Positions 2,246 to 44,094 of a stretch of DNA of 64,000 bases are shown one piece after another. The DNA is from Acidobacteriota bacterium (GTDB taxonomy: Bacteria; Acidobacteriota; UBA6911; RPQK01; JAJDTT01). Position numbers and translations under genes: made by a program. The stretch lies in the NCBI GenBank assembly GCA_965217775.1, contig CBDCJH010000002.1, positions 1,120,001 to 1,184,000 on the forward strand, in the 5' to 3' direction. Below the pieces are notes generated by a model. The model was not told where the DNA came from, searched no databases, and saw only the letters and a program-made list of their open reading frames with translations. Numbering within the stretch: the first letter of the stretch is position 1; each line of letters starts with the position of its first letter.

Positions 2246-2491
2246 GAGGGGCGACATCCCTGTCGCCCGTTGGACGGGCGATTTCCAGTCGCCCAGTGGA
2301 GGGGCGACATCCCTGTCGCCCGTTGGAGGGGCGATTTCCAGTCGCCCAGTGGGAGAGGCGACTTTCTTGTCGCCGGCTCTTCGCCGCTACCGAAGATTCG
2401 CGAGACCGGAAAGTATTGAGGGGGAAAGTGTACAGTGGGGACTCCGTCCCCCCTGCCCCCCTGTTCGGCGACAAGAAAGTCGCCGCTCCAC
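2243..2491. repeat. REP cluster (GGAGGGGCGA..TCGCC palindromes) plus a REPIN-like REP-spacer-inverted REP unit
   Basis: Alternating GGCGACATCCCTGTCGCC and GGCGATTTCCAGTCGCC units, then GGCGACTTTCTTGTCGCC, ~90 bp, GGCGACAAGAAAGTCGCC; homologous inverted copy at 42661-42881. Confidence 0.85.
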
Positions 2492-41075: not shown

Positions 41076-41530
41076 GAGCGACGACTTTCTTGTCGCCGGA
41101 TGGGAGTATCCATGTTGCAAGTGGTGGGTGCTAATCGGTGTTTCCATCCCGTGTCGTTAGTGCGTGATCTGTCCGGTCCAAGAGGCACAGGGTTAGGAGG
41201 AGCGTTCTTCCGCCGGAGGTGAGGCGGAGATCGAACTGGATCCGCCGGGCGCCGTGCAGGGGGCGATGAGTGGACCGATCAACTGGATCGAGGGGCCTGA
41301 GATCGTCGACGTCAGTCCTCCGGGAGGTCCGGATACGCCCTGGGGAGCGTCGGGTCAAGCCTCCGGCTCCTCCGCTTCGCTGCGCCCCTTCGGGTGACCC
41401 GACGCTCCCCAGGGCGTGAAGAGCTTTCATGGCCGTAAGCAAGCTTCCGGCCAGGCCTGACCGGAAGTTCTACAGACGTTCCTTGGGGGACCCGACACGT
41501 CCCCTCTCCTCCTCGGGTCGCTCCGTGGGC

Positions 41531-42478
41531 TCAGGAGACCACGCGGGGTGCGACGGGCAACCAGGTGCGGTCCTGCCGGACGAGGGTGTTGGCCAGGACG
41601 ATGAGCTTGCGCATGACGGCGACGAGGGCCACCTTGCCGGGCTTGCCGCGCTCTCTCAGCCTCCGGTACACCTCGGCCAAGTCGGGGTTCCAGCGCAGGG
41701 CGGACACCGCCGGCATGTACAGGAGCCGTCGCGCCCGCGCCCGTCCGCCGCGGATGAACGCCCGGCCCTGCCAAGCCCCCGACTCGCGCGGAACGGCGGC
41801 CAACCCGGCCAGACTGGCGGCGGCCTTGCCGCTGAGGGCGCCCAACTCGGGCATCTCGGCCAGCAGACCGGCGGCGGTGGTGGCCGCGATCCCCGGGATG
41901 GAGGTGAGGATCTCCAACTTGCGGGCCCGCGCCTCGTCGGCCGCGATCAGCGTCTGCATTTTGCGGTCGATGGTGCGCACGTGACGCTCGAACATGTTGA
42001 TCTGGGTCTGGTGCTGCTGTTTCAACACGGGTTCGCGGAGCTGTTGGCGGCGGTTGAGCGTGGCCGTGCGCTGGCGCATCAGCCCGTCCCGGACCATCTG
42101 CAGTTCCTGGAGCCGGCGTTGCGTTTTCGACGGCGCCGGGGTCCGGCGCGGATCCAGGCTGGCGGCCAACTGGGCCAGTTTCCGAGCGTCTACGGCGTCG
42201 GTCTTGGCACGGCTCCCGGTCGCCTCGGCGAAGCGCCGCGCCTGCCAGGGGTTCACCTTCGCCAGCGGCAGCTTCGCTTTGGACAGCGCTTCCTCGAGGT
42301 CCCGGTGGTAGGGGCCGGTGGCCTCGTAGACGACGCACTCGACCGGAGTTCCGATCCAATCGATCAGCGCCCGGAAGCCGGCCGGGTCATTGTCGAACTG
42401 GGCGGAATGGCCGTCGGCCAGCCGGTGCGCGTCCAGGTGCGCTTTCGAGATGTCGATGCCTACGGTATGCTGTTTCAT
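41531..42478 (-). CDS. IS110-family DEDD recombinase/transposase
   Basis: VGIDISK, YEATG, KTDAVDA (DEDD); SIPGIA, RESG serine, GGR...R..LYM, AVMRKL. Confidence 0.95.
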   Translation of the reverse strand: MKQHTVGIDISKAHLDAHRLADGHSAQFDNDPAGFRALIDWIGTPVECVVYEATGPYHRDLEEALSKAKLPLAKVNPWQARRFAEATGSRAKTDAVDARKLAQLAASLDPRRTPAPSKTQRRLQELQMVRDGLMRQRTATLNRRQQLREPVLKQQHQTQINMFERHVRTIDRKMQTLIAADEARARKLEILTSIPGIAATTAAGLLAEMPELGALSGKAAASLAGLAAVPRESGAWQGRAFIRGGRARARRLLYMPAVSALRWNPDLAEVYRRLRERGKPGKVALVAVMRKLIVLANTLVRQDRTWLPVAPRVVS

Positions 42479-42484
42479 CTTTCC

Positions 42485-42644
42485 TGTCTCCTGTGCTTGT
42501 CATTCGGGCCATGATGCCCTTGTATCCATTCAGGACATCGGGAAAGACGGTGGCCGACCTCACTCCACATCCGGATCTGACGGTCAGCGGCGACACGGTC
42601 CAGCCACCGCCGTCCGGGTCGCTCATGAGCGACCCGGACGGCCC
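42485..42644 (-). ncRNA. Putative IS110 bridge RNA in the left end (ends approximate)
   Basis: 5' 34-nt perfect hairpin (42609-42642); loop with GUCGCCGCU/GUGGAG matching the REP target; loop with AUGGAUAC/GACAAG matching the element end junction. Confidence 0.85.
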
Positions 42645-42660
42645 TATTTAAACAGACAAG

Positions 42661-42881
42661 CGGCGGCTTTCTTGCCGCCGACCAGGGGGGTTAGGGGGGA
42701 CGGAGTCCCCACTCTACACTTTCCGGCCTCTACACTTTGCGGCCACCGAATCGCATAGCAACACAGAAGACCAGGCGACAAGAAAGTCGCCTGTCCCAAT
42801 GGGCGGCAAGAAAGCCGCCCCTCCTAATGGGCGGCAAGAAAGCCGCCCCTCCTAATGGGCGACAAGAAAGTCGCCCCTCCT
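42661..42881. repeat. REPIN-like unit plus three tandem 28-bp REPs
   Basis: AATGGGCGRCAAGAAAGYCGCCCCTCCT three times (42798-42881); 42661-42792 is an inverted homolog of ~2357-2491. Confidence 0.88.
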
Positions 42882-44094
42882 AATGCGGACCCCGGTTGTG
42901 CCACCAGCGCAACTCCAGGCCCCGCTCGTTGACGGCGACCACGTCGGGCCACTCATCCCCGTCCATGTCCGCCACGATCACGGTGGCGCCCAGAATCCAA
43001 TGCTCCTTCAGCGGGTGCTTCTTCCAGGGCGCCGTGGGATCTCCGGAATTCTCGAACCAGGCAACCTGCCCCTTCTGGCCGAACCCGGTGGCCACCACGT
43101 CCAGGTCGCCGTCCTTGTCCAGATCGTGGGGGACACCCTCGAAGCCGTACCAGAAACCTTCCTGGATGTTGTGCATGCGCCAGCGGTGGCCCCGTCCGGG
43201 TTCGCCAGTGTTCTCGTACCAGACCAGATAGTGGCGGTCGGGAGCATCTCTCCCCAGCAGCCCACCCGCCATGATCAGGTCCAGGTCGCCGTCCCGGTCG
43301 AGGTCGACGGGCGTCCCATGCATGGGAAGGTGGCGGAGGCTGATGACGTGCCGCCTCCAGGGACCGGCGGCCGGATTACCGCTGTTCTCGTACCAGAGAA
43401 CCATGCCGGCCACCCGGGCCGAACCTACGAGATCCATGAGCCCGTCCCCGTTGAAGTCTCCTGCCCGGATCATCCGCGTCTCGAACCGGCCTTCGTCCAC
43501 GACATGGGTGGGCCATTCCTCGTGCTGCCACGGACCGGGATTCCGATACCAGGTGAACTTGTTCCCGAGCCGCCAACTGGAAGCGGCCACATCCGGGCGG
43601 CCGTCCCCGTCCAGATCGGCCACGTCCACGTCGTAGGCCCCCATGAGGCCGCCGCTGGTGATGGAGTGTCTTTTCCACGATTTGGTCTGCGCCGGATTTC
43701 CCGGGTTCTCGAACCAGAAGACGTCGCCGTAGAAATTGTCGATCCCGACCAGATCGATACGCCCGTCCTGGTTGATGTCCGCCAGCCGGTGCCGTTCGTA
43801 ACGGCCTTGCCAGTCTTCGCTGGCGATGGAATGGCGCCGGAACTTGCCGGATCCGTCGTTCTCGTACCAGTAGAAGGCGTTGTGGATGCGGGATCCCTTG
43901 GTCCCGCAATCGGAACTGGTGAGATCCAGGTCGCCGTCACCGTCCAGGTCGGCCGCGGCCACGGCGTAGGCGTAGGTGTAGTCGTTGGAGATGAGGTGTT
44001 CCTCGAACTTCAGGTCACGGGCCTGAAGCAGCAGGCTCGCAGTGACGAGTCCGAGGCAGATTCCGTAGGTGTTTCGATACTTGGACCAATTCAT
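42880..44094 (-). CDS. Secreted FG-GAP/VCBS repeat beta-propeller protein
   Basis: Seven ADLDGDGDLD-type repeats, each followed by W(F/Y)EN.G...W..H; signal peptide. Confidence 0.88.
   Translation of the reverse strand: MNWSKYRNTYGICLGLVTASLLLQARDLKFEEHLISNDYTYAYAVAAADLDGDGDLDLTSSDCGTKGSRIHNAFYWYENDGSGKFRRHSIASEDWQGRYERHRLADINQDGRIDLVGIDNFYGDVFWFENPGNPAQTKSWKRHSITSGGLMGAYDVDVADLDGDGRPDVAASSWRLGNKFTWYRNPGPWQHEEWPTHVVDEGRFETRMIRAGDFNGDGLMDLVGSARVAGMVLWYENSGNPAAGPWRRHVISLRHLPMHGTPVDLDRDGDLDLIMAGGLLGRDAPDRHYLVWYENTGEPGRGHRWRMHNIQEGFWYGFEGVPHDLDKDGDLDVVATGFGQKGQVAWFENSGDPTAPWKKHPLKEHWILGATVIVADMDGDEWPDVVAVNERGLELRWWHNRGPH

Follow-up and report, generated by a model that had tools for sequence, protein, structure and literature searches.

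In a 64,000-nucleotide (nt) stretch of the genome of an Acidobacteriota bacterium (contig CBDCJH010000002.1, positions 1,120,001 to 1,184,000 of the forward strand; hereafter the window), the minus strand from 42660 to 41105 carries an element that can with good confidence be read as an insertion sequence (IS) of the IS110 group, active or recently active, and most likely endowed in its left end with a bridge RNA that reads repetitive extragenic palindromic (REP) targets as well as the element's own ends. Its family, an RNA fold with compensatory changes, covariation of guides with flanks and with element ends, the boundaries, the copy number and the abundance of targets were all observed directly in the comparisons reported here. 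An earlier interpretation of the window, made from its letters without database searches (the sequence-only reading), had described an IS110 RNA-guided recombinase programmed against the host REP, and the ends, the 34-nt hairpin, the loops and the guides are indeed found on the minus strand exactly where that reading had placed them. The main features of the element are the following.

41105 to 42660, minus strand: the whole IS110-group element, 1556 base pairs (bp) including the CT at both ends
41531 to 42478, minus strand: recombinase gene, 315 residues, the only long frame in the element with database support
42659 to 42660, minus strand: core CT of the left junction, from sequence, copy comparison and empty-site contigs
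41106 to 41105, minus strand: core CT at the right end, after the left donor arm
41107 to 41113, minus strand: left donor arm ATGGATA, from sequence and copy comparison
41101 to 41104, minus strand: right target CCCA, from sequence and copy comparison

The recombinase matches PF01548 (DEDD_Tnp_IS110) over residues 6-146 with 82.1 bits (cut-off 29, 4.7e-23) and PF02371 (Transposase_20) over residues 189-272 with 67.5 bits (cut-off 21.3, 1.4e-18), in the domain order that characterises the IS110 family, and the NCBIfam model NF033542, 'IS110 family RNA-guided transposase', is matched at 206.5 bits against a cut-off of 140. Sequence matches in the PDB, over residues 3-299, are to ISCro4 (9t56, 6.6e-35) and IS621 (8wt6, 4.5e-31), with the motifs GID, EATG, KTDxVDA and ESG in register in both. 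The alignment gives D9, E52, D94, D97 and S233 as catalytic candidates, the IS621 counterparts of which are D11, E60, D102, D105 and S241 (Hiraizumi et al. 2024, PMC11208158). The assignment to the IS110-family RNA-guided transposases, with a predicted RuvC-like DEDD domain and a serine Tnp domain, is therefore supported. The sequence-only reading had called 315 residues compact, which they are not to any notable degree: the length lies within the usual range (328 residues in IS621, 341 in ISCro4). Its claim of novelty survives in part, as this is an uncharacterised ortholog with its own code, but the kind has been described before, the 90% protein cluster counts 294 public members (the sole name given being 'transposase'), and the NCBI model itself says 'RNA-guided'.

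From 42660 to 41105 the minus strand reads CT-TGTCTGTTTAAAT ... CAACATGGATA-CT, with the left end CT-TGTC at 42660-42655 and the right end ATGGATA-CT at 41113-41105, and the occupied site is GCCGCCG-CT-CCCA. Relative to the empty site, the element amounts to 1554 bp and one extra CT. The empty allele was found in contigs of the public runs X1, X7 and X9, two of which are labelled sponge metatranscriptomes; these contigs connect 41104 to 42659 and skip 1554 bases, and at the joint two letters fit either side, as expected of a single CT. One of them, of 188 nt, covers 134 nt of the gene side without a mismatch and 54 nt of the REP side. Because an empty allele of this same locus exists with a single CT, the ends of the element are fixed to the base. 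Long terminal inverted repeats are absent and one CT remains in the empty site, both as in the IS110 family; a short AACA/TGTT repeat flanking the donor arms is the only such repeat read from the sequence.

The genome (6.43 Mb, two contigs) contains four copies with 98-100% identity, here called A (the window copy), B, C and D, which all start with CTTGTCTG, finish with ATGGATACT and have the CT core at both ends, with different flanks in each. The 315-residue frame and the catalytic residues are kept in all four, with two or three substitutions relative to the window copy; the window copy and copy B have identical left ends and proteins that differ at three residues. In the window, two convergent genes enclose a REP array, and the element is inserted within this array. 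Taken together, the copies point to an element that is intact and most likely active or recently active.

The left end comprises 182 nt upstream of the gene, where the IS110 group has its bridge RNA, and is predicted to fold into a 5' hairpin and two loops.

42609 to 42642, minus strand: 5' stem-loop of the predicted bridge RNA, a 34-nt perfect hairpin, from the fold and compensatory changes
42549 to 42608, minus strand: target-binding loop (loop 1) and its closing stem, in which 42608-42597 pairs with 42559-42549
42489 to 42535, minus strand: donor-binding loop (loop 2) and its closing stem, from fold and alignment

Loop 1 is closed by the strands GGTGGCTGGACC (42608-42597) and GGTCGGCCACC (42559-42549), and loop 2 by TCCTG (42535-42531) and CAGGA (42493-42489), with an inner stem of GGGC (42519-42516) and GCCC (42509-42506). 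The fold of the left end has an energy of -88.8 kcal/mol, compared with -64.6 +/- 4.0 for shuffled sequences (z = -5.99; 0 of 200 shuffles as good). An alignment of 13 distinct left ends was built, drawn from this genome (two), related acidobacterial genomes (six), Candidatus Foliamicus (three; recombinases 65-68% identical), a second IS110 family of this genome (one) and an alphaproteobacterial group (one; 41-44% identical), and on it I counted the pairs in the 5' hairpin, the closing stems of loops 1 and 2 and the inner stem of loop 2. Of 447 cells, 93.1% are paired, a value that falls to 33-49% when the 3' partner is slid by one to three columns, and 13 of the 35 pairs are altered on both sides (seven of 15 in helix 1, three in helix 2 and three in helices 3 and 4); helices 2, 3 and 4 are paired in 97.1%, 96.9% and 100% of their cells. 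In none of 500 shuffles were the pairing, the count of compensatory pairs or the covariation score as high as observed, and further pair types showed no excess over shuffles (457/500). Deriving the structure from one of the aligned sequences favours the fraction of paired cells, and affects the compensatory counts less; it is because of these compensatory changes that a two-loop RNA architecture can be called supported.

A covariance model built on this alignment finds, among the 150 scored of about 5079 candidates, nine full-length matches in the genome and one truncated left end, discussed below as a scar; the nine are the four copies of the element, four copies of the second family and one degenerate third locus. 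This third IS110-like left end (G000:C2:4368220-4368382, 66.2 bits; G000 being the present genome) is without the ATGGATAC guide, looks decayed and was not used. Contigs from metatranscriptome runs of two studies cover the gene and reach into the donor loop (X7 41296-42514, X9 41495-42484, X18 42078-42519); summed contig depth over 42550-42681 is uneven, high in X18 and low in X7 and X9, and not interpretable.

The loops hold segments that correspond to the target and to the ends of the element.

42586 to 42594, minus strand: left target guide GUCGCCGCU, 7 nt plus core, equal to left flank plus core and covarying with it
42563 to 42566, minus strand: right target guide GGAG, complementary to CT plus CC, from occupied sites
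42522 to 42529, minus strand: left donor guide AUGGAUAC, identical to the right-end ATGGATA plus C
42496 to 42501, minus strand: right donor guide GACAAG, reverse complement of the left-end CTTGTC
42561 to 42562, minus strand: candidate handshake guide of the target loop, by comparison with the IS621 handshake description
42494 to 42495, minus strand: candidate handshake guide of the donor loop, by the same comparison

Written as DNA, loop 1 carries GTCGCCGCT at 42594-42586 and GTGGAG at 42568-42563, and loop 2 carries ATGGATAC at 42529-42522. The guides were compared with the flanks of 26 insertions, namely the four copies here, 15 from three related acidobacterial genomes and seven from three Foliamicus genomes. 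Omitted from this count were L025 (left end split by an IS5-like insertion), L080 (partial), L027, L028 and L079 (alignments beginning at position 22) and L026, a locus without a right flank; 41 alphaproteobacterial loci and the four loci of the second family were handled apart.

Counted over the 26 sites, 177 of 182 positions of the left target guide agree with the left flank, or 181 if wobble pairs are admitted; the agreement is exact at 22 sites, and none of 20000 shufflings of guides among sites reaches the observed match. The guide occurs in five states, and four of its seven positions vary in step with the flank.

Guide GUCGCCG: left flanks GTCGCCG or GCCGCCG
Guide ACCGCCG: left flanks ACCGCCG (one site GCCGCCG)
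Guide ACCGACG: left flanks ACCGACG
Guide GCCCUCG: left flanks GCCCTCG
Guide GUCCUCG: left flanks GCCCTCG or GCCCCCG

All departures except one place a U opposite a G of the bottom strand. Kinship inflates this test, and contrasts within a genome weigh more. The present genome has two loop variants, one with its two sites at G[C/T]CGCCG and the other with its two at ACCGCCG. In the genome of one relative, three guides of the ACCGACG type lie at ACCGACG, and of ten guides of the ACCGCCG type nine lie at ACCGCCG and one at GCCGCCG. The flank of L025, GTCGCCG, also agrees with its guide. The covariation of guides with targets across homologs, which the sequence-only reading had named as a check, is present for this guide. 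Of 20000 shuffled versions of the left end itself, 872 contained the left-flank 9-mer, with one mismatch tolerated, 21 the 8-mer of the right end and 914 the reverse complement of the element's initial six bases, and not one contained all three of these informative matches; the bare GGAG turned up in 15841 and carries no weight.

The other three segments fared differently. The right target guide stands as GGAG, with right-flank positions 1 and 2 matching in 23 and 24 of 25 sites and positions 3 to 6 in 16, 9, 14 and 6; the two further bases (42568-42567) that the sequence-only reading had included are not supported, as a 6-nt guide of the window variant predicts CCAC, which occurs at none of four sites (copies A and B, L022 and L023 all have CCC[A/G]). 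The right flank of L025 also reads CCCAGG. Since the second family matches at 7/7 positions (guide GAGGGAG at flank CT-CCCTC) and the window variant only over GGAG, the length of the right target guide evidently differs between elements. In the alphaproteobacterial group, UUCGUGUCU is found at TTCGTGT-CT and CGUGAG at CT-CACG, with the right guide GUGAG going with CT-CAC. The right donor guide tracks the left end of the element in three states, GACAAG/CTTGTC, UACAAG/CTTGTA and GAUAAG/CTTATC (the last in L032, 8/8), over 6 to 8 nt. The left donor guide lies where the earlier reading had put it and shows the claimed 8-nt identity with the right end; guide and end are invariant in all relatives examined, and hence without covariation.

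Two further positions resemble the handshake guides described for IS621. After strand exchange, the U that follows GGAG would be able to pair with the A at position 7 of the donor (ATGGATA), and GGAGU is kept in 23 of 25 aligned relatives, with GCAGU in L021, L024 and L026. For the C that follows GACAAG, the possible partner is position 7 of the target, a G at all 26 sites. Both bases pair poorly with their own DNA at position 7. The complementarity is what the IS621 model requires, and these bases may function accordingly.

The targets belong to an abundant class of hairpins.

42661 to 42680, minus strand: REP hairpin CGGCGGC-AAGAAA-GCCGCCG with a 7-pair stem
2479 to 2491, plus strand: unoccupied REP site GTCGCCG-CT-CCAC, a perfect match to both guides if a 6-nt right guide is assumed

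The first of these hairpins provides with its 3' arm, GCCGCCG (42667-42661), the left target, and the empty site GTCGCCGCTCCAC at 2479-2491 likewise lies within a REP hairpin; both the occupied and the perfect empty site of the sequence-only reading are accordingly found. Four perfect 13-mer sites exist in the genome, all unoccupied. The 11-mers GTCGCCGCTCC, GCCGCCGCTCC and ACCGCCGCTCC occur 60, 84 and 152 times in the genome, of which 31, 36 and 126 in hairpin context, compared with means of 10-12 and a maximum of 48 for permuted 11-mers. With a left target that forms a REP arm and with 11-mers this abundant, the claim that the element is programmed against the host REP is upheld. Among 25 related left flanks, 20 have an inverted repeat of at least 5 bp that ends no more than 2 nt from the core; those without a hairpin are L013/L029/L030 and L031. 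A short way upstream of the element, at 42772-42900, there are four REP units in tandem (CATTAGGAGGGGCG[A/G]CTTTCTTG[T/C]CGCC type) that lie in opposite orientation, and two REP-like hairpins score as terminator-like. The stretch GTCGCCG-CT-TGTC within the right flank of copy C was considered as a second left junction; it diverges after 6 nt, and CTTGTCAGCCC occurs seven times in unrelated contexts, which makes the resemblance one of chance.

An RNA of approximately 165 nt would most likely be transcribed from the left end and partner the 315-residue recombinase, probably starting from a promoter rebuilt over the joined ends of the circular form.

41115 to 41120, minus strand: TTGCAA, a -35-like box 10 nt from the right end
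42646 to 42651, minus strand: TTAAAT, a -10-like box, by arithmetic 17 nt after TTGCAA in the circular form

A promoter rebuilt across the junction of right and left end has been described by Durrant et al. (2024, PMC11208160), and in the Foliamicus relatives a perfect TTGACA stands equally far from the end. The first loop would read the target and the second loop the joined ends, AUGGAUAC pairing with the right end and GACAAG with the left, and recombination at the CT core would set the element just after the REP hairpin; RNA synthesis, binding by the recombinase, handshake pairing and the chemistry itself are expected to proceed as in the work on IS621. A ribosome-binding motif, AGGAG, lies 9 nt before the start codon and overlaps with the 3' strand of the stem that closes the donor loop, so that folding of the left end may in addition limit translation.

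In every tested respect save the greater length of the left end over the right, the architecture appears to be that of IS621, and no new mechanism is indicated. According to Durrant et al. (2024, PMC11208160) and Hiraizumi et al. (2024, PMC11208158), IS621 likewise has a CT core, a left-end bridge RNA with a 5' hairpin and two loops, a target loop with a 9-nt left and a 4-nt right guide that both include the core, the same strandedness of guides, complementarity of the handshake at position 7, REP sequences as natural targets, DEDD and serine catalytic residues and a -35 box in the right end. It differs in protein, the match being only E = 4.5e-31 over residues 3-299, in code (target G[U/C]CGCCG-CT-CC and donor ATGGATA-CT-TGTC here, target ATCAGGCCTAC reported for IS621), in the order of the end lengths, the right end here being longer than the left, and in its host, which here is acidobacterial. 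The best solved-structure match, ISCro4 (PDB 9t56, 6.6e-35), of the IS622 type that has reportedly been used for genome engineering, has the same domain order. ISPpu10 and ISPpu9 of Pseudomonas putida are described as IS110-family elements in REP or conserved intergenic hairpins, with the hairpin 5' of the core like that of the present element; for ISPpu9 a small-RNA gene downstream is reported, whereas the present element has a long right end with a palindromic indel and an antisense IS relic. In the IS1111 group (seekRNA), which shares the recombinase family, the guide RNA is reported from the right end, together with sub-terminal inverted repeats of 7-17 bp, unlike the left-end RNA and the short AACA/TGTT repeat found here. 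Whether such elements are excised by a cut-out or a copy-out route is disputed, judging from published abstracts. My literature search, which did not extend to the supplementary ortholog tables on IS621 (Durrant 2024) and IS622/ISCro4, found no paper on IS110 elements of these bacteria.

Several observations weigh against the interpretation as a bridge-RNA element. The contigs of the public runs do not allow the start, end, strand or level of an RNA to be read, and among the contig joints listed none is the go-back joint of a circle, although absence from contigs proves nothing. The -10-like box is weak, TTAAAT being without the consensus A at position 2, and a simple promoter scan of the linear form, which cannot cover the circular junction, gave no site. 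No Rfam 15 family reached its gathering score, and no bridge-RNA family was matched; eight matches with E up to 1 were rejected, all below gathering, as microRNA-like or long non-coding RNA models on the right-end palindrome or a sub-threshold Collinsella-1 on the plus strand. In the second variant the left target guide has as its ninth base a G, which mismatches the second core base, as does the base after the left donor guide (A or G among relatives). Beyond 4 nt the signal of the right target guide is weak at best, with matches at 45 of 100 positions versus 37.9 in shuffles, a value reached by 859 of 20000 shuffles. L013, L029 and L030 have near-identical flanks and may represent one event, and relatives are not independent. 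Finally, at 426 nt the right end exceeds the left (182 nt), the reverse of the size order reported for the IS110 group (Durrant et al. 2024, PMC11208160).

The target could also be chosen by the protein or by REP hairpin structure alone, with the matches in the left end as by-products of, for instance, promoter or translation-control structures. The hairpins at 20 of 25 left flanks and the overlap of the donor-loop closing stem with the ribosome-binding motif, through which structure could regulate translation, would fit this, and for ISPpu10 a preprint abstract reports that a target stem-loop adds specificity. However, four of the seven left-guide positions shift with the flank over five states, including those of L013/L029/L030 and L031, which are without a hairpin, the right donor guide tracks the element end, and no shuffled left end combined the three informative matches, so that I regard this explanation as highly improbable. 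Equally, the immobility of the window copy, as a dead relic, would agree with the absence of a circle junction and of RNA ends from the public-run contigs, and with the fact that two of the four copies have an ISKra4-family element nested in their right end. Against it, the window copy and copy B have identical left ends and proteins with three differences, frame and catalytic residues are retained by every copy, in other runs this locus is polymorphic for the presence of the element, and the two composite copies occupy different sites, meaning that even the 3.4-kb composite has moved; the chance that the window copy is dead is accordingly slim.

The correspondence could also run in the opposite direction, with the guide acquiring its sequence from the target, by copying or conversion, once the element has inserted; gene conversion with one of the many REPs would be an example. 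The guide DNA does copy a REP arm, and the target loop is mosaic, which indicates that recombination acts on this segment: the window copy and copy C agree at 144 of 146 left-end positions outside the loop and at 23 of 36 inside it, whereas the window copy and L022, from another genome, agree at 34 of 36 positions in the loop and 136 of 146 outside (window 42563-42594, L003:2839-3004 for copy C, L022:1335-1500). Yet the guide lies 66 nt inside the element with a conserved hairpin between it and the flank, and the IS621 experiments reported by Durrant et al. (2024, PMC11208160) have the guide determine the target. Moreover, loop positions that do not correspond to the REP change jointly with the guides, which fits exchange between elements and not conversion by REPs, and because of this joint change it is suggested that whole target loops are exchanged between elements and not mutated base by base. 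Conversion of the guide by its target is thus very unlikely, and a bridge RNA that determines the target is the reading I retain.

The greater length of the right end finds an explanation in its composition.

41105 to 41530, minus strand: non-coding right end, 426 nt, mosaic in the alignment with relatives
41339 to 41414, minus strand: 76-nt perfect palindromic hairpin, an indel between copies
G000:C2:2676784-2678639 and 4663676-4665529 (L081): nested element, in copies C and D

The right ends of relatives measure 358, 315 and 163 nt, the last in Foliamicus. The palindrome is missing from the right ends of the L013 type and from an X18 contig that joins 41338 to 41415, and a further ~170 nt (about 41151-41320) form a relic, in antisense, of an IS481-like gene's 5' end with its first codons and upstream region; an intact relative of this gene is found in L010 (open reading frame 1582-2196). 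Since palindrome and relic account for the excess, it is a secondary feature. At one and the same position of their right ends, copies C and D also carry an insertion of 1856 bp that has terminal inverted repeats and a 9-bp duplication. Two overlapping frames encode its split transposase, which NCBIfam assigns, below the cut-off, to the ISKra4 family, without a Pfam match for the 430-residue frame; three further copies or parts of this insertion lie elsewhere in the genome. As C and D occupy different REP sites, the 3.4-kb composite must have moved as a unit. In a related genome, a 1191-bp IS5-like element (L025:210-1400) with a 318-residue frame, inverted repeats GGAAGGTCTGA and a TTAG duplication sits in the target-binding loop and destroys the bridge RNA.

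Truncated left ends were found in four genomes from two phyla, one in each, and all four break off exactly behind the template of the left target guide and its core.

G000:C2:5910888-5910962 (L082/L009): scar with element positions 1-75, then CCCGTT and REP
G003:C1:3239415-3239491 (L094:1501-1577): scar with positions 1-77, then TTGAGC
G032:C1:643381-643456 (Foliamicus; L122:1501-1576): scar with positions 1-76, then CCCAGG and a REP array
G033:C1:992121-992153 (L133): scar with positions 42-74 plus two bases, then CCCGGG

Three of these continue into normal right-target sequence (CCC...). Four other left-end fragments have different end points, namely positions 59, 57, 27 (not read) and 16. 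The scar of the present genome is derived, as four relatives have at this locus a single REP without an element; these relatives do not separate a deletion made by the recombinase from slippage. Because the template copies the left half of the target together with the core, it could act as an internal recombination half-site, and the scars could result from self-targeting or self-deletion, a possibility that I put forward tentatively and consider somewhat less than even. Such scars would arise by RNA-guided deletion against the right junction, or by self-insertion and subsequent excision. Alternatively, slippage on a repeat of 9-11 nt shared with the next REP may have produced them. Half-match events are reported for IS621 in an abstract, and a literature search on self-targeting of bridge RNA or IS110 elements and on left-end remnants found no description of scars of this kind. 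A search for scars in the alphaproteobacterial genome, in which 40 of 82 candidates were scored, all of full length, is uninformative in this respect. At the locus orthologous to the scar of the present genome, G002 (C1:4353565-4355486) has approximately 1.9 kb between the flanks without a match to the left end of the element, and hence a different insertion at the same REP.

The second IS110 family of this genome has four copies (L005-L008; G000:C2:3135316, 5760330, 1656751 and 6039725) with 66% DNA identity, the same donor ends (ATGGATA-CT-TGTCTGTT) and a left end of 505 nt. All four are inserted at one point (CCGGTATG-CT-CCCTCA) of a repeat of ~180 nt, and in two of them the start of the left end is duplicated in tandem over 72 nt.

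The element itself is ordinary, one more IS110 bridge-RNA system aimed at REP hairpins, and as an ortholog it is a further candidate for tool development that gives no sign of superiority over those already characterised. Its value lies in a clean natural data set, with five left target guides in close relatives, each at a matching site. The two loop variants on near-identical backbones are a natural counterpart of a reprogramming experiment and provide ready pairs for work on specificity. If made by the recombinase, the scars would bear on the risk of off-target and self-target activity of bridge recombinases. Should the template indeed serve as a half-site, bridge-RNA elements would carry a built-in liability to delete or target themselves, and scars and mosaic loops would together form a natural record of the retargeting and loss of these elements.

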